The notes under the pieces were generated by a model that searched no databases, had not been told where the DNA came from, and saw only the letters and a list, made by a program, of their open reading frames with translations. A program made the translations under genes and the position numbers. Source: Candidatus Altimarinota bacterium (GTDB taxonomy: Bacteria > Patescibacteriota > Gracilibacteria > BD1-5 > UBA2023). Taken from it: a stretch of DNA of 64,000 nucleotides. The DNA lies in the NCBI GenBank assembly GCA_024709505.1, contig JANJWP010000003.1, positions 4,767 to 68,766 of the forward strand, written 5' to 3'. Of this stretch, positions 1,791 to 62,277 are shown piece after piece (position 1 is the first letter of the stretch; each line of letters starts with the position of its first letter).

Positions 1791-3053
1791 CTATTCCGGA
1801 ACGATGCAGGCTCACTCTATCGGTCAGCCCCACGTCCACTCGCAGGCGGGCGGATTGGGAAGACCGGGTTTCGGAACCGAAAAATCAAGGCTTTTCGAAC
1901 GGTAACTTCCAGCGGGATCGACGATGACGTCCACGCCGTGGAACCGAATCGTTTCCGGACGCGAGTCGTCAATCGCGGCGACGTAGGCCAAAGTTCCGGT
2001 GGCAGTTTCGACACCAAGGGAATACTTCAGGTGCGTCCTTCCTTCCGAAGCCCCTTCCGGATACGAGAAGAATACGGCGAAAGAGCGGTTTTGAAAATCG
2101 AACGGCTTAGCTCCGTCGCCGGACGCCCTGCTCCCGGAAAGCGAGAGATCGTTTTGAAGGTATCCGGTCCCCGAAGCGATGCCCGCACGCTCCTCGGAGG
2201 CAATGGCAACGAGTTGTCCGGCTTCGGCAAGCGCTCCGGTGTCGAATTCGACGACCCGCACCGAAAAAGTCCCGTCGGCGGATATCCGGAGATACCCTTC
2301 GGAAACCTCCCCCAAACGAATGAACGGAGGATCGGCGTTATGGGGGTTTTTTCCGATGGTCGCAAGGGTTTTCGGGGAATTCCAAAAGGCGTTCTGCCAC
2401 CCCGCTCAAAAACGAACCATGCCTACGACGCCCGTCCTGGCGCTGGCATCGTCGTCGAAATAGCCGGAAGGATAGGCGATCGAACCGGTCGATCACGTTC
2501 GAAAATCGTCGGAATCGAGATTGCTATCGAATTCGGAAAAATCGGGGGGCAACCCAAAACTAACGAACGTGGCGTCCGGATCGGAAAAAGTTCCGGAGAG
2601 AGTTTGGGCGCTCCGCGAGGGATTCATGTCGAGCGAATTCGAGTATGATCCGGTGGAAAACGTGGAAAAATCCTCGGAATATTCGAGTACGAACGGAATG
2701 CCCGAAGAAGGGGTCGCTACGCAGGCGAGATTTCCGCTCAAAACCGCCGCTTCGGCGGGAACCGCTTCAATCGACGAGCCTTCGACGGTTCCGCTGAAAA
2801 CGACGTTTTCCGGGCACTTCCGGGCCGGCGAAAATCCTCACCCGCTCGAATTCGCCGCAATCGACCAAGCGAACGCGGCATCGGCCTTGGCCGAAAGGTT
2901 CTTCGACATTTTGGAGTCGTAGGTCTGAAACCGGAGGTTTTCAAAAAGGATTTCCGACTTTGAGAGATACAGGTATCAAAGCCCCATCGCCAAAACGGTG
3001 AGGAATATGGCATAAGCGAGGACGTTCGCGTCCCGGTTCCGGAAATCGGCCAT
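1791..3053 (-). CDS. Membrane-anchored extracellular protein, 420 aa, 6 sense UGA; downstream of a pilin gene
   Basis: Track ORFs 1824..2315 and 2493..2741 plus the intervening stretches share one frame. In-frame TGA at 1812, 1824, 2406, 2493, 2838 and 2976. ATG at 3051-3053, then TM VLAYAIFLTVLAMGLGYLYL. TAG stop at 1791-1793. Confidence 0.65.
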
Positions 3054-3058
3054 GGAAT

Positions 3059-3661
3059 TTAAAATACGACGTTGACGGATAGGGGAAATTCGGGGATTTC
3101 GAATTCGGGCCTCCCTATCCATTCATCCCTATGGGAAGAATAAAAAGACAGTTGGATATCGGCCAAACTTCCCGAATTGTATTCTTCGGCCGAAAGCGAA
3201 GCCATCGAAATGCCTTCGAACGCCGATTCCGGATAAAGGGGGACCGAAAAGGCGGTTTGAGGTTCGAAAAGCACCGCCCGAACCTGCGCGGAAGTAAGTT
3301 CCTGTCCGATGAGAAACCGTTTCCTATAGGTTCCATCGGACACCGAAACCAACCGGTATTGCGAAGGCGCGTCCCCCTCCTCTGCCACGCCCAAAAGGAT
3401 TCAGGCGGTCTTTCCGGAATTGGTGAACACGGCGTAGTCGAAAGATCAGGAACCGAAAACGCGTACCGATGGAAATACCGAAGAAACCGTTGCGAGCTTG
3501 GAGAGCGCATCGGTAAGGGAAACATGGGTTTGGCTCCTCGTTTTAGCCAAAGAAAGCGCTTCGACGGCGCGTGAGGCCAAGCCAATCGTCCCTCCGAGCA
3601 ACGTCGCGGATATGGCGATTGCCACGACGATTTCGGAGAGCGTATAGCCCCTTGTTTCCAT
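3059..3661 (-). CDS. Type IV pilin-like / pseudopilin protein, 200 aa
   Basis: The N-terminus METRG|YTLSEIVVAIAISATLLGG matches the prepilin cleavage/methylation motif G|(F/Y)TLxE followed by a hydrophobic helix. Track ORFs 3059..3394 and 3446..3661 join through TGA at 3401 and 3446. TAA stop at 3059-3061. Confidence 0.8.
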
Positions 3662-31034: not shown

Positions 31035-32162
31035 ATGAAGATAGGAATCGACTGCCGAATGTACGGATCCCGTTTCACCGGAATTGGGATTTATGTGGAA
31101 CGGCTCGTGGAATACCTGGCCAAGCACGACCACGAAAACGAATACGTCCTCTTTCTCTCGAAGTCCGGAATGTCCGATTGCGAAGTGAGCCTCCCGAATT
31201 TCAAAAAGGTCGAAACGAATGCCCGCCACTATTCGTTTGCCGAGCAAGTCGTATTTCCCCTTCAGATCGCTCGAGAAAAGCTCGACCTGATGCACTTCAC
31301 CCATTTCAACGCGCCCCTCGCCTACCGGGGAAAATCGGTCGTCACCATTCATGATCTCACCCTCTCGTTTTATCCGGGACGGAAAATGACGAGCAGTTTC
31401 CACCGGTTCGGTTATTCGACGACCATCGGGTCCATAGCCAAGCGGGCGGAGAAAATCTTTTCGGTCAGCGAACACACCAAAAAGGATCTCGTCGAAATTC
31501 TCGACGTCGATGAAAACAAGATCGTCACCATTCATAACGGAGTAAGCGCCGAACGGTTTTCCGCCGACATTCCGGCGGAAACGGTTGAAAAAACCAAACG
31601 GGGGCTTGGCATTGAAGGAAGGTACCTTCTTTATACCGGAGTTTTTCGCGAACATAAAAATCTCGTCCGGCTCGTGGAAGCTTTCGGACAAATTGCGGAA
31701 AAATATCCGGACGTTGATCTCGTCCTTGCGGGAAAAGAAGATCCCGGATACCGCGACGTAAGGGATGCCATCGTCCGGCTTTCGCTCTCGGGAAGGGTTC
31801 GCTTGCCGGGATTCATAGACAACCGCGAAATCGTTGCGCTCTACAAAGGAGCTGAGGCTTACGTGTTTCCTTCGCTCTACGAAGGATTCTGACTCCCGGT
31901 ATTGGAAGCGATGGCGGCGGGAGTCAGCGTCCTCTGCTCGAAGGGATCGAGCCTTTCGGAGGTCGCCGGAGAAGGGAACGCGCTTTTTTTCGATCCGCTT
32001 CGGGTAGACGACATGGCACGAGCGCTCGACGAATTCCTGAAAAATCCCGAAAAAAAGGCCACGCTCGTGGAACGCGGCAGAAAGTGGGTCAAACGGTTTT
32101 CTTGGGATTCGATGGGAGCCTCGATTCTTGAGGAATACCAGAAACTCGATACGAAGAATTAA
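31035..32162 (+). CDS. Glycosyltransferase family 4 (GT-B, RfaB-like)
   Basis: ATG at 31035 inside track ORF 30690..31892, in frame with 31902..32162 through TGA 31890. Signature FPSLYEGF[UGA=G]LPVLEAMAAGVSVL. TAA stop. Confidence 0.88.
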
Positions 32163-51923: not shown

Positions 51924-52127
51924 CTATTCGAGCGCGAAGGGAATTTCTTTAACCTCGTAGGTCCGGTTGGAGAGGCTCTGGTTTTTTAAAACCGGGGAGG
52001 CGCTCGCCGTGAGTTCGGTGGTCGTCACGAGGTAAAACCCTCCGTTATACCGGATCGAAACGACGTGCTCGGGATTGAGGTATACGGTTTGTCCGGTAGT
52101 CAGGACGAAGGGAAAGAAATCCGCCAT
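51924..52127 (-). CDS. Small hypothetical ORF (67 aa) between groES and groEL
   Basis: ATG 52125-52127 lies 11 nt after the groES stop. TAG stop at 51924-51926, 33 nt before the groEL ATG. No SD and no family recognised. Confidence 0.4.
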   Translation of the reverse strand: MADFFPFVLTTGQTVYLNPEHVVSIRYNGGFYLVTTTELTASASPVLKNQSLSNRTYEVKEIPFALE

Positions 52128-52472: not shown

Positions 52473-52499
52473 TTAGCAAGCGAATTATATACGTGCTAA
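52473..52499 (-). promoter_or_regulatory. CIRCE-like inverted repeat (HrcA operator candidate)
   Basis: Minus strand: TTAGCACGT-ATATAATTC-GCTTGCTAA. It has the same 9-9-9 geometry and TTAGCA/TGCTAA ends as canonical TTAGCACTC-N9-GAGTGCTAA. Confidence 0.6.
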
Positions 52500-52543: not shown

Positions 52544-52571
52544 TTGACAAACGATTTTCGATAGATATAAA
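52544..52571 (+). promoter_or_regulatory. Consensus promoter driving the small-ORF locus
   Basis: TTGACA (52544-52549), 16-nt spacer, TATAAA (52566-52571), divergent from the groES promoter. Confidence 0.5.
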
Positions 52572-52650
52572 AATATCCGTTCCTGGGATTCGCGCCGAAA
52601 GGTAGCGGATTCTGGAACTTCCTGATCAAACAAATAGGAGGGCTTTACCC

Positions 52651-52749
52651 ATGAAATGTCAGCAATCGCCGCCCGGCTTCGCCGACCAACGCTTCGACGA
52701 CGCCTTCGCCATCACCGCCATCGCTGCCCAGGCCAGCGGCGCCACGTAA
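52651..52749 (+). CDS. Candidate small ORF A (32 aa)
   Basis: AGGAGG (52636-52641) 9 nt before the ATG. MKCQQSPPGFADQRFDDAFAITAIAAQASGAT, TAA stop. Coding status unproven. Confidence 0.3.
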   Translation: MKCQQSPPGFADQRFDDAFAITAIAAQASGAT

Positions 52750-52809
52750 CGGCCGCCGCAGCAGTCCGCAAGAGCCAAAAGACGAACGCCAAAAAGCACG
52801 GAGGTACGC

Positions 52810-52881
52810 ATGCAGCACTTCCGCACCCGGCCACGACGAACGCCCTGGCTGACAAGCCTCGGGGCGGGCGCAAATCCTTAG
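52810..52881 (+). CDS. Candidate small ORF B (23 aa)
   Basis: GGAGG (52800-52804) 5 nt before the ATG. MQHFRTRPRRTPWLTSLGAGANP, TAG stop. Coding status unproven. Confidence 0.2.
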   Translation: MQHFRTRPRRTPWLTSLGAGANP

Positions 52882-52901
52882 GGATGGCCTCCTAGGGTAA
52901 G

Positions 52902-52935
52902 GACCCCTCACGACGCGAGTCGCCGGGGTCTTTTT
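52902..52935 (+). terminator. Strong intrinsic terminator
   Basis: GACCCC..CGAC-GCGA-GTCG..GGGGTC compound hairpin followed by TTTTT. Confidence 0.75.
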
Positions 52936-52938
52936 CTT

Positions 52939-52966
52939 TTGACGATCGTTATTGGTTCGGTATAAA
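52939..52966 (+). promoter_or_regulatory. Consensus promoter for small ORF C
   Basis: TTGACG (52939-52944), 16-nt spacer, TATAAA (52961-52966). Confidence 0.5.
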
Positions 52967-53048
52967 TTTTCCGCCCGTCAAAGCGCCTCCAAAACGCCAA
53001 AAAGACGCGCGGGAACTTTTTTCAAAAACCAAGACGAAAGGAGCATCC

Positions 53049-53135
53049 ATGAAACGCGATCCCAGTTGGGCTCATGCCGCCAAGGTTCCCGTCCAGGGAA
53101 TCGGTCCGGCCATTCCGGACGGCGACGGCTGATAG
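53049..53135 (+). CDS. Candidate small ORF C (27-28 aa)
   Basis: AAGGAG (53038-53043) 5 nt before the ATG. MKRDPSWAHAAKVPVQGIGPAIPDGDG, then TGA TAG in tandem (53130-53135). Confidence 0.3.
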
Positions 53136-53211
53136 CAACTGAACCCGTAAGTACGCTCTCTAAAAATTCGGCAAAACTGCCTGACCGCAGCTGCCGGACT
53201 CGTCCGGCGCC

Positions 53212-53260
53212 AATCCCCAACCCCGCTTCCAAAAGCGCCAGTTGGGGATTTTCCTTTTTT
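53212..53260 (+). terminator. Strong intrinsic terminator
   Basis: AATCCCCAAC...GCTT-CCAA-AAGC...GTTGGGGATT followed by TTCCTTTTTT. Confidence 0.7.
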
Positions 53261-53279
53261 GCGACAACGGGGTTTCCGT

Positions 53280-53307
53280 TTGCCAAACCCCCCGTTTTTC
53301 CTATAAT
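53280..53307 (+). promoter_or_regulatory. Consensus promoter for secD, overlapped by a second hairpin (53267-53299)
   Basis: TTGCCA (53280-53285), 16-nt spacer, TATAAT (53302-53307). The ACGGGGTTT/AAACCCCCCGT hairpin plus T run covers the -35 and the spacer. Confidence 0.5.
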
Positions 53308-53323
53308 CCGGCCAACTTCGCGG

Positions 53324-55093
53324 ATGTCTGAAATCCGCGAAAACCATTACCGTCTCCTTATGTCCAAAGAAGCACCGAAAAGCCTTGGAGCCCGACTCGC
53401 CGTAATTGGAGCGATCACCTTCGCGTCCTTCGCTTACGCCTTCCCGTGGCAATCCCACGGAATCGACATGCCGTTCGAAACCGGCGATTACAAGCTCGGA
53501 CTCGACCTTCACGGCGGCGTCGAACTCGACTACAAGATCGATCTGGAAGAGGCAAAGAAAAAGGGGGGCGAATACAACGAAAAGAACATCGTCGAAGGAT
53601 TGAAATCCATCGTTGAAAAACGCGTCAATTCGCTTGGAACTGCCGAACCAACCATTCAAACGGCCTCTTACGGCAACGAATCCCATATCATCGTCCAAAT
53701 TCCAACCCAGGATTTTGGGGGAGATTTGAGCGAAGAAGAACGGAAGGCTAAAAACGCCGAATACATTTCGAAGGCGAAGGACACCATCGGAAAAGTCGTC
53801 CGGCTCGAATTCAAGGAAATGAAGTCGTCGATTACCGACGCCGACCGCACCGAGCGCAAAGCCTTGGCCGAGGCGGCGGCAAAAGAGGCTCTGGAAGCCA
53901 AAGATTTCTCAGTCGTCGGAAAGAAATACCGCGACAACTACGAAAACGTCGAATATCAAACCGGTTCCGGAACGCTCGAACAACTTCCCCGGGAATTCGT
54001 TTTCGAAGGAATCGGGGCGGTATCCGGCGCTCAAACCACCGAAGCTTTCGCGTCGCAGAAATCGGGAGGACTCACCATGGACGAAGGCGGAAAGATCGTT
54101 CCGCTTGAAGGAAACAAGGGGTTTTCGGTCGTTCGGATACGGAACGCCGTCGGCACCGGAAGCGGAAAAACCTACGAATACGAAGGGATTTTCGTAGACG
54201 AAAGGCCGTCGGTATGGACGCTTGCCAAAACGCTCGATGGACGGGCTCTTGACGAGCGGTATCTCATCCGGGCATCCGTCAGCTTCAATCAGGGATTCCA
54301 ACCCCAAGTCGAACTCCTCTTCAACGACGAAGGCGCGAAGATTTTCGGCGAACTTACCAAGCGGCTCGTCGGACAACAGCTCGCCATTTTCGTCGGAGGA
54401 CAGCTTCTTACCGATCCGGTCGTACAGACTACCATTTCCGATGGAAAGGCCGTTATCACCGGAAACTACACCCCCGAAAGCGCCAAACAGCTCGCCACCG
54501 ACATCAATACGGGCATCGTTCCGGCTCCCATCTACCTTACGAGCGAACGGGCCATCGACGCTAAAATGGGGAGCGATTCGCTCTCAGTCATCGTAAATGC
54601 CGGACTCATCGGACTCATCGCCATCGTGGCCTTCCTCGTTTGGGCATACCGCGTTTCCGGCCTTCTTGCGGGTATTGCGCTCGTCATTTACGCAATCCTT
54701 CTCCTTGCCATCGTCAAGTTCTTCGGAATCGTGCTGACCCTCGCTTCCATCGCGGGAATCATTCTCTCCATCGGCCTCGCCATCGACGCGAACGTCCTCA
54801 TCTTCGAACGCACCAAAGAAGCGCTTCGGGAAGGTTCCGACCTTAAGCGCGCGGTCGTTTCGGGCTTTGAAAAATCATGGAGCGCGATTTGGGATTCGCA
54901 TATCACCTCCCTTACTTCGGCGGTCATTCTCTATATTTTCGGCATTTCGCTCATCAAGGGATTCGGACTCATGCTCGGAATCGGCATCGTGCTTTCGCTC
55001 TTTACTGCCATGTGGGTTTCGCGCATTCTCATCCTCCACGTGAGCGAATCGTTCGAGGGACGCGAATCGAAATTCGTAGGACTGAAGAAATAG
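53324..55093 (+). CDS. secD: Protein-export membrane protein SecD
   Basis: ATG at 53324 (alternative 53360) inside track ORF 52952..55093. N-terminal TM, a large periplasmic domain (LGLDLHGGVEL...) and 5 C-terminal TM segments with SIGLAIDANVLIFER. TAG stop. No UGA. Confidence 0.9.
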   Translation: MSEIRENHYRLLMSKEAPKSLGARLAVIGAITFASFAYAFPWQSHGIDMPFETGDYKLGLDLHGGVELDYKIDLEEAKKKGGEYNEKNIVEGLKSIVEKRVNSLGTAEPTIQTASYGNESHIIVQIPTQDFGGDLSEEERKAKNAEYISKAKDTIGKVVRLEFKEMKSSITDADRTERKALAEAAAKEALEAKDFSVVGKKYRDNYENVEYQTGSGTLEQLPREFVFEGIGAVSGAQTTEAFASQKSGGLTMDEGGKIVPLEGNKGFSVVRIRNAVGTGSGKTYEYEGIFVDERPSVWTLAKTLDGRALDERYLIRASVSFNQGFQPQVELLFNDEGAKIFGELTKRLVGQQLAIFVGGQLLTDPVVQTTISDGKAVITGNYTPESAKQLATDINTGIVPAPIYLTSERAIDAKMGSDSLSVIVNAGLIGLIAIVAFLVWAYRVSGLLAGIALVIYAILLLAIVKFFGIVLTLASIAGIILSIGLAIDANVLIFERTKEALREGSDLKRAVVSGFEKSWSAIWDSHITSLTSAVILYIFGISLIKGFGLMLGIGIVLSLFTAMWVSRILILHVSESFEGRESKFVGLKK

Positions 55094-55120: not shown

Positions 55121-55834
55121 ATGATAGGGTTTTTCGATTCCGGAATCGGAGGACTTACCGTTCTCGCCGAGTTCCGGAAACGCTTTCCGGATTTTGATTA
55201 CGCCTATTTCGGTGATCGGGCCAACTGCCCATACGGCGATCGCGAGGATGAAGAAATCGTCGATTTGACCGAACGCGGAGTCGAGAGGCTTTTTCGCGAG
55301 GGCGCCGAAATCGTCATCCTCGCGTGCAATACGGCCACCGTCCATGCGATACGCTACCTGCAACAAGTCCGGTTTCCCGAAAAAAAGATTTTGGGCGTCA
55401 CCATTCCGGGCGCCGAAAAAATCGTCGAATCGGGATACCGCCACGTCGGAGTGCTCGCGACCGAATGAACCGTGCGGATTCGGGCATATAAAGAACGGGT
55501 CCATATTTTGGACGATTCGGTTTCGGTACACGAAATCGCGGTTCCCGAACTCGTCCCCCTGATCGAACGGGGCATCGTCGGTGGCGAAGAAGTGCGCGAA
55601 ATCCTCGCGGCGAAGACGTCGCAATTCCAAAACATCGAGGCGCTCGTGCTCGGATGCACCCATTATCCCCTCGTTCGAAAAGAAATCGAATCCTTGCTTC
55701 CGGGAATCGAAATCGTCGATCCGGGCGAAGAAGCCGCAAAAAAATTCGCTTCTTACCTAGAGCGACACCCCGAAGTAGAAGCGAAGATCTCAAGAGGCGG
55801 AACCCTTCGGATAAACTATTCCGAACCCACCTAA
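55121..55834 (+). CDS. murI: Glutamate racemase
   Basis: Track ORFs 55121..55468 and 55472..55834 are in frame through TGA 55466. Motifs FFDSGIGGLTV, ILACNTA, VLATE[UGA=G]T, LGCTHYP. TAA stop. Confidence 0.92.
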
Positions 55835-60891: not shown

Positions 60892-62277
60892 ATGCAAAAT
60901 TCGAACGGAACCCCTTCCCATCTCCACGTAGTGGGCATCTGAGGCATCGGCGTTTCAGCCGTAGCCCGCTATTACCGACAATCCGGATGGACCGTTTCCG
61001 GTTCCGATGGATCGGAATCAGCCATCACCCGAGCCCTCCGCGCCGAAGGAATTCCCGTATCCATCGGACACGACGAATCAAACGTTCCCCAAAACCTCTC
61101 GCTTCTCGTCTATTCGGAAGCCGTCGTCACGAAGCCCGATCTTCCCAAAGAAGAGCAGGTGCTCTCCAATCCGGAAATCCGGAAATCGCACGAAATGGGT
61201 GTCCGACGGCTTTCCTATCCCGAAGCGCTCGCCGAACTCTTTAACGGCAAATGCGGGATCGCCGTATCCGGAAGCCATGGAAAATCGACTACGACGGCCA
61301 TGATCGGAACGGCGTTGGTCGAGTCGGGATTCGGGGGTTCGACGGTCGTTGGAACGCAAGTGCCCCAATTCGGCGGAAAAAACGGGCACTTCGAACCGAA
61401 AAGCCCCGTCTTCGTCATCGAAGCATGCGAATACCGGAGATCGTTTTTACGCTACGAACCCGAAATCGCCGTCATTACCAATATCGATCTCGACCATCTC
61501 GACTATTACCGCGACTTAGAAGATTACCTTCAGGCGTTCGAAGCCTTTCTTTCCAGAACCCGGAGAGCGGCGATATTTTCGGCCGATTGCGAAAATTCCC
61601 GGAAGGTCGCGTCATCGGATGGCGCGTCGCACTTGGAAAAATATTTCGTCGATAAGGACGGCTTCGTCGGACCGGACGGAACGCGCACGCCGTTGCCGCA
61701 AATGAAACTCGCCGTTCCGGGCGAACACTTGGCGCAAGACGCCCGGCTAGCCTACGTCGCGCTCCTGCTTGCGGGGGTTCCCGAGGCCGACATCGCTCCG
61801 GCGCTCGAAAAATACCGCGGCTCGTGGCGGAGGAGCGAAGTCATCGGAACGACGGAAAACGGCAATCTGCTCGTCTCCGACTACGGGCACCATCCTTCCG
61901 AAATTCGTCCGACGCTTGAAGCGTTCAGGGACAGATATCCGGACAAGACGCTCTTCGTCACGTTCCAGCCGCACCAACACTCGCGAACCCGCGAACTCCT
62001 CACGGAGTTCGCGTCGGCATTCGATGCCGCGGACGAGCTTCTCGTTCCCGACATCTATTTTTCGCGCGATAAAAAGGAAGACGTCGAATGGATGACCGTA
62101 AAACGGCTTCTCGACACCCTGAAAACCCGCTATCCGAACGTTCGGGGAGGACGGGGACTCGATGCCGCGGCCGAAGAAATCGAAGCCTTCGACCGGAAAA
62201 ATCCGGGAAAAGCGGTCTTCGTGCTCCTTGGGGCGGGAAATATCGATGACCTGCGGTACCGACTCGTAAAAACCTAG
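60892..62277 (+). CDS. murC: UDP-N-acetylmuramate--L-alanine ligase
   Basis: ATG 60892 gives MQNSNGTPSHLHVVGI[UGA=G]GIGVSAVARYYRQSGWTVSGSD, in frame with track ORF 61159..62277 (GSHGKSTTTAM, DLDHLDYY). UGA at 60940-60942. TAG stop. Confidence 0.92.

Follow-up and report, generated by a model that had tools for sequence, protein, structure and literature searches.

Two predicted small transcription units between groES and secD in a CPR bacterium: a small-protein family and a probable composite RNA

In an uncultured, Peribacteria-like bacterium of the candidate phyla radiation (CPR), two small transcription units, each bounded by a sigma-70-type promoter and an intrinsic terminator of its own, are predicted in the gap between groES and secD within the window, the 64,000-nucleotide stretch of DNA analysed here; the features described below lie on the plus strand. 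Unit 1 (52544-52940) is predicted to yield an RNA of roughly 360 nt (~52578-52939) and unit 2 (52939-53260) a transcript covering ~52973-53260, the ends of both being placed from motifs alone. The gap measures 0.93 kb (0.87 kb here in the comparison with relatives, which have 1.0-2.2 kb at the same place), its content differs even between close relatives, and only ~15 close relatives carry the locus. The promoters, Shine-Dalgarno (SD) sequences, and short ORFs reported in a first-pass annotation of this DNA were all present at their given coordinates on direct reading, and the promoters and SD/start pairs are kept in relatives.

The unit 1 promoter (52544-52571) joins TTGACA (52544-52549) to TATAAA (52566-52571) by a 16-nt spacer; neither hexamer varies among five type-1 relatives, unlike the spacer. 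The unit 2 promoter (52939-52966; TTGACG at 52939-52944, a 16-nt spacer, and TATAAA at 52961-52966) overlaps the U-tract of terminator 1, and its TTGAC and TATAAA are invariant over type-1 and type-2 relatives, across a diverged spacer. The strict pattern TTGAC-N(16-19)-TAYAMH, which leaves the last base of the first hexamer free, had 7 matches in the 64 kb, against 0.96 +/- 0.97 in shuffled sequence (7-fold enrichment). Three of these matches cluster at 52.51-52.94 kb, and the unit 1 promoter is one of the seven. SD-like motifs were found at 7 of 40 crudely called long ORFs, so the earlier remark that most genes here have a weak SD or none is roughly right. With both promoters, three SD/start pairs, and both main terminators kept in relatives, the arrangement exceeds chance: hexamers and SD/start pairs are conserved across diverging spacers, and the stable terminators carry compensatory changes. 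Two descriptions needed trimming. The locus is indeed GC-rich, but modestly so (0.567 vs 0.544 for the window, 80th percentile), and only 52600-52940 stands out (0.616, 98th percentile). Of three terminators called strong, those at 52899-52939 and 53212-53260 merit the term and the third hairpin (53266-53296; -9.4 kcal/mol, z -0.45) is weak. Folded in full length, unit 1 showed no unusual stability (z -0.74) and unit 2 a slight excess (z -1.9); local hairpins alone were significant.

Any reading of ORFs in this lineage must take account of its genetic code, in which UGA is a glycine codon. The TGA-TAG that had been taken for a double stop at the end of the third ORF (sORF3) is not one: TGA (53130-53132) specifies glycine and TAG (53133-53135) is the sole stop, so sORF3 has 28 codons ending at TAG rather than the 27 obtained under table 11. 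Because all three frames are stop-free here under the lineage's own code, open frames are uninformative, and the persistence of an open ORF was ruled out as evidence of coding. Table 25 was also required for long ORFs at the distant SecD loci (L006-L017; 42-60% SecD identity). On the minus strand, an ORF of 88 aa (52645-52911) and another of 102 aa (52978-53286) were rejected, since relatives carry indels of 1, 2, 4, and 5 nt that break them. The three window peptides are not hydrophobic, as first described (GRAVY -0.12, -0.94, and -0.47); values ran from -0.12 to -0.95 across all eight peptides scored, with a best 11-residue Kyte-Doolittle window of <=1.7. A type I toxin had been discounted earlier, and the hydrophilic peptides and the lack of any minus-strand promoter-like site within 52544-53300 bear this out. 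Searches of Pfam and NCBIfam returned no match for the three peptides, a 67-aa ORF, or a 190-aa ORF.

The RNA of unit 1 opens with a 5'-terminal stem-loop (52579-52618; -22.5 kcal/mol, z -3.65) closed by a GNRA loop, GAAA here and GGAA in relatives. Its 3' arm occurs as two haplotypes with 4 differing positions, between which pairing is always kept through G-C/G-U or A-U/G-U exchanges; the stem-loop may serve to stabilise the 5' end of the RNA. Next comes sORF1 with its SD (52636-52749): AGGAGG at 52636-52641, a gap of 9 nt, and 32 codons from the ATG at 52651 to a TAA stop (52651-52749). Five variants of 31-36 aa were recovered, in which SD, ATG, and TAA are invariant. All 5 of their indels are multiples of three, compared with 8 of 36 in non-ORF flanks, yet pN/pS is 0.6-1.8, that is, ~1. 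A small peptide from sORF1, as originally proposed, is thus plausible, the kept frame speaking for it and the substitution ratio against it; judged by substitutions, the peptide itself is hardly constrained. If translated, as the kept frame suggests, sORF1 would give a fast-evolving small protein, or else translation itself would be what matters. An analogue of sORF1 ending in LASGAA and a stop was also seen in L004, one of the loci compared.

The 3' part of unit 1 is a structured domain of ~140 nt, element A (52799-52940), which contains sORF2, a hairpin at 52876-52897 (arms CCUUAGG and CCUAGGG around the loop GAUGGCCU), and terminator 1 (52899-52939; -19.2 kcal/mol, z -3.1). It is the best-conserved segment of the locus, with 81% of alignment columns invariant among five type-1 loci (the window and four relatives), and a covariance model built for it (R1) found matches in 13 loci, equal to 10 distinct sequences. 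Pairing was retained in 98.6% of cells as compared with 33-53% in slid controls, compensatory changes occur in both the hairpin and terminator 1, and the observed covariation was reached in 0 of 500 shuffles, statistics that shared ancestry inflates because the sample is a single narrow clade of ~10-14 distinct sequences in which most element A helices never vary. In type-2 relatives (L002-type loci), element A has its own TTGACA-17-TATAAA promoter. We propose that element A is constrained at the RNA level and transcribed alone in these sister genomes, and that it could act as a small RNA through an invariant single-stranded stretch, GGGCGCAAAUCC, and a UGGCC loop.

Several leads on element A were followed and set aside. 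A complementarity search with the invariant GGGCGCAAAUCCU stretch against the 64-kb window gave 3 matches including the element itself, with 3.3 expected, which is chance level. The sole match in a metagenome scan with the element A pattern (L018) was fortuitous, inside the coding region of a high-GC organism. A helix that would sequester the SD at the sORF2 start (CGGAGG with CUUCCG) shrinks to 3-4 bp in type-2 sequences, its conservation not being robust, and a CsrA-type role for GGA motifs was dropped, the loop GGA being missing in L003 and L026. Searches for element A and for block B, a second structured RNA described below, gave nothing in the rest of the window, in L004, or at the distant loci L006-L017. 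Housekeeping RNAs (a tmRNA with an Ala-rich sORF1 tag, RNase P, 6S, SRP) were rejected as identities for unit 1, with ARAGORN and Rfam negative up to an E-value of 10; ARAGORN called no tmRNA, and tRNA-like ends are absent from the unit.

Within element A, sORF2 (52810-52881) begins 5 nt after GGAGG (52800-52804) with the ATG at 52810 and stops at TAG. Both its SD and its start (ATG or GTG) are present in both locus types, but a 1-nt indel shifts the frame between the types with nucleotides still ~90% identical, and the type-2 frame, with UGA as glycine, meets no TAA or TAG before the terminator. The idea of a small protein is therefore not supported here: sORF2 is a by-product of element A and not a conserved gene, though a short basic peptide may be translated from it. 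Disrupted ORFs beside conserved hairpins, the pattern that the first-pass annotation had set against its own coding interpretation, are found at sORF2 only. Unit 1 is thus best described as a probable coding-plus-structured composite RNA, with a 5' GNRA-capped stem-loop, a 32-codon ORF behind a strong SD, and element A at its 3' end. The earlier suggestion of a dual-function small RNA is plausible for it, sORF1 being joined to an element conserved at the RNA level.

Unit 2 carries sORF3 (SD and ORF, 53038-53135), with AAGGAG at 53038-53043, 5 nt, and an ATG at 53049 that opens 28 codons (53049-53135). The ORF belongs to a family of 12 or more variants of 27-52 aa that share the N-terminus MKRDPSW and differ in length by whole codons. 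Close pairs showed synonymous to non-synonymous changes of 8:0, 7:0, 7:0, and 15:4 (pN/pS 0-0.31). By this purifying selection and the size of the family, the small protein first suggested for sORF3 holds up clearly, as a genuine small protein in so far as substitution patterns can identify one. Its sequence, MKRDPSWAHAAK, has no hydrophobic core (GRAVY -0.47; best 11-residue Kyte-Doolittle window 0.92, and 0.5-1.2 in relatives). The N-terminus is the conserved part; C-termini vary by subgroup (GDG(G), KPGI, or (DK)LPKA), and the C-terminus here is shorter than in L001 and L002, while L019 holds an out-of-frame relic of KPGI and its stop. In 11 of 13 variants TGA falls exactly at the end of the conserved peptide, though UGA is a sense codon. 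Every locus recovered places sORF3 upstream of secD, at a distance of 225 nt here and about 400-500 nt in relatives, and the linkage persists in L004, where the other neighbour is a gene other than groES. Databases carry the family only as hypothetical protein. We propose that unit 2 is a conventional monocistronic mRNA whose product, of 28 aa in this genome, is a small soluble protein of the MKRDPSW family, rich in Gly and Pro.

Relatives have a further structured, covarying RNA of ~150 nt, block B, after sORF3. It is deleted in the genome of the window, where a remnant (53155-53190) spans a deletion junction at ~53168-53175; positions 22-259 of the L031 block (238 nt) are absent. The same deletion is found in an independent assembly, L032 (99.5% identity), and block B is half deleted in L019. 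The model of block B (R2) scored 17.5 bits here as compared with 113-187 bits in relatives. A hairpin with arms GCCGGAC/GUCCGGC (53193-53208; -12.1 kcal/mol, z -2.9) follows, retained by type-1 relatives with G-U pairs and compensatory changes, and then terminator 2 (53212-53260; AAUCCCCAAC...GUUGGGGAUU and a U-tract; -20.4 kcal/mol, z -4.4), in which an A-U pair is replaced by G-C in relatives (CCCCAAC/GUUGGGG vs CCCCGAC/GUCGGGG).

The weak hairpin and the secD promoter occupy 53266-53307, the promoter consisting of TTGCCA (53280-53285), a 16-nt spacer, and TATAAT (53302-53307), an 11/12 match. Its TTCCGTTTGC(C/T)AAA and TTCCTATAATCCG core are conserved across all relatives compared, with the exception of L019/L030, which have one T for C in the -35 hexamer. 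A stable stem-loop (53317-53341; -14.3 kcal/mol, z -5.8) lies in the 5'-UTR ahead of the secD start at 53360; most relatives likewise have a hairpin there, of differing sequence, and L001 has none. We suggest that secD is transcribed from this third, separate promoter.

The first-pass annotation had raised leader-peptide attenuation of secD, and a broader form of the idea takes the locus as a cis leader: whether transcription gets past the terminators into secD would depend on ribosomes translating sORF3 (or sORF1) or pausing, in the manner of leader-peptide attenuators or of arrest peptides that monitor Sec. Genomic position argues for it: sORF3 precedes secD in all recovered loci, L004 has an analogous promoter, SD, and 27-codon ORF upstream of secD despite its different other neighbour, and two terminator-like hairpins directly precede the gene. 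A rare reassigned UGA at the end of the conserved peptide in 11 of 13 variants also speaks for it, and arrest peptides encoded ahead of secDF form a known class (PMC10987492). Against these points, the near-consensus secD promoter, conserved in relatives, lies 3' of both terminators, and on these sequence grounds attenuation by the two units is unlikely because secD has its own promoter behind them. The sORF3 stop lies 80 nt from the terminator here, a spacing that reaches >330 nt in relatives, and the unit was retained when 238 nt were deleted. The CCGGAC repeat within sORF3 is missing in L019, no conserved antiterminator/terminator alternative pairing coupled to the end of sORF3 was found among the relatives compared, and a peptide of only 28 aa with subgroup-specific C-termini and no signal or transmembrane (TM) segment is ill matched to the arrest model. 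We consider the cis-leader reading as a whole unlikely. A linkage of another kind would make the sORF3 unit a translation-coupled riboregulator: reading through UGA as glycine, ribosomes would enter block B, in varying frame, ahead of the tandem terminators and the secD promoter, and the efficiency of UGA decoding (tRNA-Gly-UCA availability) or Sec status would control folding or termination of the RNA. This is highly improbable; if true, a reassigned stop codon would form the basis of a sensor of a new kind. Should the persistent linkage to secD turn out to be functional, it would suggest a new means of adjusting the Sec machinery.

Other readings divide the locus differently between protein and RNA. 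All three mini-ORFs could be translated, sORF2 included, with element A conserved through the overlap of sORF2 coding sequence and terminator. The well-spaced GGAG(G) and start codon in both locus types agree with this, as do an alike stretch of 14 N-terminal residues, x(Q/H)(H/Y)F(R/H)xRPRR(T/S)xWL, and the two differences between L031 and the window, both synonymous. However, the frame-shifted part of sORF2 is the most conserved in nucleotides (~10% divergence vs ~26% in the shared N-terminal part), conservation does not break off at the stop codon but carries on into the hairpin and terminator, the type-2 frame passes through the terminator without a stop, and type-2 substitutions are mostly non-synonymous; the reading is improbable. 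At the opposite extreme, both units might be purely non-coding small RNAs, GGAGG and ATG serving as structural or target-binding elements and no ORF being translated. Since most genes of this genome lack an SD, GGAGG need not mean a ribosome-binding site; open frames throughout the GC-rich DNA of the locus, pN/pS of ~1 in sORF1, and the structured RNA of element A and of the relatives' block B are also in accord. Strong protein-level purifying selection and whole-codon length changes in sORF3, the 5 of 5 in-frame indels of sORF1, and an AAGGAG-N6-7-ATG layout shared by the relatives' accessory protein genes (asparaginase-like, 190 aa) make it very unlikely. Finally, a once larger accessory island may be in decay here, its leftover pieces having little or no function. 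Relatives hold an asparaginase-like gene, a 190-aa orphan, and block B in gaps of 1.0-2.2 kb, the gap here is down to 0.87 kb, block B is wholly gone here and half gone in L019, and sORF3 shows the C-terminal truncation relative to L001 and L002 and the out-of-frame relic in L019 noted above. Yet promoters, SDs, and terminators are the conserved parts and these remain, sORF3 is under purifying selection, and element A keeps its 81% invariant columns; we regard decay as quite improbable.

The reading we favour, with moderate confidence, is as follows: the gap holds two autonomous small units restricted to one Peribacteria-like CPR clade, an mRNA for sORF3 and the composite RNA of unit 1, with sORF2 a by-product and secD most likely not subject to attenuation. 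CPR bacteria (Patescibacteria) have small genomes and a poorly known biology, and to our knowledge almost nothing has been reported of their small proteins and regulatory RNAs. The locus yields a small-protein family under selection, a probable composite RNA, and, in relatives, a second covarying RNA; neither element A nor this second RNA is represented in Rfam. It is also a warning about arguing from ORFs in this lineage, where UGA is a sense codon, GC-rich frames stay open, and an SD-led mini-ORF can be the by-product of an RNA. The finding is a solid improvement in annotation rather than a surprise.

Known systems offer partial parallels. Dual-function small RNAs such as SgrS/SgrT, RNAIII/hld, and SR1/SR1P combine coding and RNA functions, and unit 1 resembles them as a short predicted transcript that pairs an SD-led ORF with a separate structured domain, the latter standing alone as a predicted transcript in sister genomes; it differs in having no sequence or structure homology to them (Rfam negative), and its sORF1 is only predicted to be translated. 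Leader-peptide transcription attenuators of the trpL, hisL, pheL, and ilvL type likewise present a promoter, a short SD-led ORF, and then an intrinsic terminator, but the locus has no regulatory codon run and no conserved antiterminator/terminator pairing, another promoter follows the terminator, and the ORF-terminator spacing is long and variable. Sec/YidC monitoring substrates are arrest peptides upstream of secA, secDF, or yidC (SecM, VemP, MifM, ApdA/ApdP/ApcA, uDF groups; PMC10987492, PMC7897499), and their published criteria include an N-terminal signal or TM segment, a conserved C-terminal motif, and a spacer of >30 aa (PMC10987492). Like them, sORF3 is a conserved small ORF without annotated function just upstream of secD. 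It departs from three of the four criteria because it has no N-terminal signal or TM segment, is 28 aa in total as against >30 aa between signal and C-terminal motif, and has differing C-termini with no RAPP-like or shared motif. Arrest peptides are, moreover, co-transcribed with an SD-sequestering stem-loop, whereas two terminators and a promoter of its own set secD apart from sORF3.

An Rfam search had been put forward as a check, and no known family explains the region: against Rfam 15 (4227 models) the window gave only a terminator look-alike of ctRNA_p42d (18 bits vs a gathering score of 50), and the homologous regions of L001, L002, L003, and L005 gave no match even at E-values of 5-10. 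Element A and block B, which match no Rfam 15 model and belong to one narrow clade, differ in this from the orphan "motif" RNAs of Rfam. They resemble them in being GC-rich, intergenic, and terminator-ended, with covarying helices, GNRA hairpins, and swaps of variable-length hairpins, and could represent new classes of CPR small RNAs.

Two small, autonomous transcription units occupy the gap between groES and secD, an island that is real, conserved and specific to this lineage. Every motif named in the first-pass annotation was found on direct reading. Unit 1 comprises a TTGACA-16-TATAAA promoter (52544-52571), sORF1 (52651-52749; AGGAGG-9-ATG, stop TAA), sORF2 (52810-52881; GGAGG-5-ATG, stop TAG), and the compound terminator 1 (52899-52939; -19.2 kcal/mol, z -3.1). 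Unit 2 comprises a TTGACG-16-TATAAA promoter (52939-52966), sORF3 (from 53049; AAGGAG-5-ATG, with TGA then TAG at the end), a GCCGGAC/GUCCGGC hairpin, and terminator 2 (53212-53260; -20.4 kcal/mol, z -4.4). Of the three strong terminators originally proposed, these two are stable; the third hairpin, overlapping the secD promoter, is not (z -0.45). The described GC-richness is modest (0.567 versus 0.544 overall), with only 52600-52940 unusual (0.616). The peptides were computed to be hydrophilic, in keeping with their description as not hydrophobic, and the SDs do stand out: by crude calls, about 7 of 40 long ORFs carry an SD-like motif.

A standard promoter scan requires T at the last position and so missed both TATAAA promoters. 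A pattern scan for strong TTGAC-N(16-19)-TAYAMH sites returned seven in 64 kb, compared with 0.96 +/- 0.97 in shuffles. Three of the seven lie within 430 nt at this locus, namely the two unit promoters and the divergent groES promoter (52511-52484, minus strand; TTGACT-16-TATAAT); the rest precede genes or a tRNA. The groES promoter region overlaps an inverted repeat that resembles CIRCE, TTAGCAAGC-N9-ACGTGCTAA (52473-52499), in a segment 90-95% identical in three related loci (L002, L003, L005), which suggests that groES is under HrcA-type heat-shock control.

Interpretation of the reading frames depends on the genetic code. Several window genes have a Pfam domain with a TGA in frame, among them a GT1 glycosyltransferase (31890-31892) and murC (60940-60942), where the codon takes the place of a Gly in GIGGIG, a conserved motif at the N-terminus. 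Opposite the TGA in murI (55466-55468), six relatives have an invariant Gly (ATE[G]TVR). Conversely, in-frame TGAs in secD and murI of seven relatives (L005, L019, L020, L021, L026, L028, L031) nearly always fall opposite a Gly of the window; one faces Ala and one is ambiguous. Well-defined gene ends that were checked are nearly all TAA or TAG, murI of L001 being the one exception. From such alignments, the organism appears to read UGA as Gly, as in table 25, at a frequency low enough for ORFs called under table 11 to look largely intact. Table 25 is confined to the Absconditabacterales/BD1-5 class in the literature consulted, and a 54%-GC clade that is labelled 'Peribacteria' and uses UGA for Gly sparsely may thus have been misclassified, or else be noteworthy.

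Among species-representative genomes, the relatives identified by SecD are MAGs carrying the label Patescibacteria group or Candidatus Peribacteria, the five loci L001-L005 sharing 71-80% SecD identity with the window. More distant SecD loci (42-60%) require table 25, have only short gaps upstream of secD, and, where a lineage is named, are labelled Gracilibacteria or Peribacteria. DNA similarity detected the intergenic locus only in L001, L002, L003 and L005; loci L019-L034 were added by searching with the small proteins and retrieving the encoding contigs. Two architectures emerged. Type 1 (the window, L001, L019, L030, L031, L032) reads groES, promoter-sORF1-element A-terminator, promoter-sORF3-(block B)-terminator, promoter-secD, where element A is the 3' domain of unit 1 and block B a structured RNA. 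Type 2 (L002, L003, L005, L020-L022, and partial contigs) holds two extra genes in the gap (2755-3279 and 3618-4190 in L002; also in L005 and L020-L022), each served by a separate TTGACA promoter and AAGGAG SD: one encodes a short protein resembling asparaginase (168-174 aa; PF00710, E 8.5e-28), the other a 190-aa orphan that matched no family. Element A stands alone here, under a TTGACA-17-TATAAA promoter of its own. At the groES end, a 67-aa ORF (MADFFPFVLTTGQTVYLNPEHVV...; 51924-52127, minus strand) separates groES from groEL, normally a tight operon. Its C-terminal 60 residues are 77-95% conserved in nearly every relative covering the site, where it is called as a gene; it had no significant Pfam or NCBIfam match.

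sORF3 is a bona fide small-protein gene. A profile search recovered 12 distinct proteins of 36-52 aa, all within this clade, that share an MKRDPSW N-terminus, have Gly/Pro-rich, repeat-like middles, and differ in length by whole codons; none matched a Pfam or NCBIfam family. By Nei-Gojobori counts, differences in closely related pairs are overwhelmingly synonymous: 8:0 (L020/L022), 7:0 (L020/L024) and 7:0 (L002/L005) synonymous to non-synonymous, each with pN/pS 0.00; 15:4 (L002/L026; 0.08); 6:2 (L019/L031; 0.10); and 7:5 (window/L031; 0.22). Codon positions 1, 2 and 3 account for 30, 27 and 46 variable alignment columns, and the promoter hexamers, AAAACCAAGACGAAAGGAG leader and start codon are invariant or nearly so. 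The end of the frame needs revision: with UGA a sense codon, the 'TGA-TAG' said to close a 27-aa ORF is Gly plus stop. The C-terminus is evidently free to vary, as L032, an independent assembly 99.5% identical to the window, has TGG in place of the TAG (window 53134) and its frame ends five codons later. In nearly all relatives a TGA (TAA in L005 and L024) falls exactly at the end of the conserved peptide, so that, with UGA as sense, the frames would extend into block B as variable tails, not conserved and as long as 100 codons.

Unit 1 is a composite RNA and probably serves two functions, pairing a short translated ORF with a structured 3' domain in which the spurious mini-ORF sORF2 lies. All three frames of sORF1 are stop-free under the lineage's code, and its openness thus proves nothing. 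Its SD, ATG and C-terminal ...ASGAT-TAA are conserved among five variants (31-36 aa), and all five of its indels are multiples of three, as against 8 of 36 in non-ORF segments of the same alignment (chance at one in three, about 0.004). Its pN/pS ranges from 0.6 to 1.8, with variable columns distributed evenly among codon positions (20, 22, 21). On this comparative evidence sORF1 is probably translated, into a peptide that would be weakly constrained.

No part of the locus is better conserved than element A (52799-52940), the last ~140 nt of unit 1 (81% invariant columns versus 40% in sORF1), and no other part is common to both architectures. A covariance model for element A returned a single copy in each of 13 loci, amounting to 10 distinct sequences, and no copy elsewhere. 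Paired cells reach 98.6% of its alignment versus 95.5% in shuffles, none of the 500 being as high, and 33-53% after sliding of the partners. The hairpin CCU(U/C)(A/G)GG-[xxUGGCCx]-CCU(A/G)(A/G)GG and the terminator both contain compensatory changes; in the other helices, changes are one-sided or absent. The proposal that sORF2 is a small-protein gene finds no support here. A 1-nt indel shifts its frame between types, divergence is ~10% in the frame-shifted part versus ~26% in the shared N-terminal part, and the type 2 frame, with UGA as sense, meets no TAA or TAG until past the terminator. Conservation is at the nucleotide level, which marks element A as an RNA-level element and sORF2 as not a conserved protein, although an SD and start (ATG or GTG) retained in both types would leave narrow room for translation of a short basic peptide.

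Block B lies between sORF3 and terminator 2 in relatives (L002:4574-4725, L031:2233-2393, L030:4408-4569, L001:2530-2671, and others), with a core of ~150 nt, four branch points, GNRA hairpins (GGCC-GUAA-GGCC and GGUC-GYAA-GACC), and one position where unrelated hairpins replace one another. Compensatory change affects 9 of 42 predicted pairs; none of the reading frames through block B is conserved, and no Rfam family matched. The window lacks 238 nt of it (junction ~53168-53175), retaining a remnant (53155-53190). L032 carries the same deletion, which rules out an assembly artefact; in L019 block B is half deleted, its first part being absent.

A leader-peptide attenuator acting on secD had been suggested. 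Classical attenuation is unlikely, because a promoter (53280-53307; TTGCCA-16-TATAAT, 11/12 match), conserved across relatives, sits between the terminators and secD, because ORF-to-terminator distance varies, and because no alternative pairing is conserved. Most likely the locus is not a secD attenuator. A stem-loop at the predicted secD mRNA 5' end (53317-53341; -14.3 kcal/mol, z -5.8) is kept in most relatives with different sequence. The unit 1 RNA, like the secD mRNA, begins with a stable stem-loop, which suggests that 5'-end protection is a general habit of the lineage. The main argument for some functional link is persistent synteny with secD, even in L004 (SecD 71% identity), where the other neighbour is not groES. 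Analogous units there run promoter, SD, ORF ending ...LASGAA*, terminator, second promoter, AAAACCAAGAAAAAAGGAGG leader, and 27-codon ORF; their peptides are unrelated, and neither element A nor block B was detectable. Measured against criteria published for Sec-monitoring arrest peptides (PMC10987492), sORF3 fits the first, 'small uORF of unknown function', and no other: it lacks a signal or TM segment, its length falls short, and no C-terminal motif is shared. The locus is of known kinds, a small protein gene and a small RNA, but the families concerned are undescribed.
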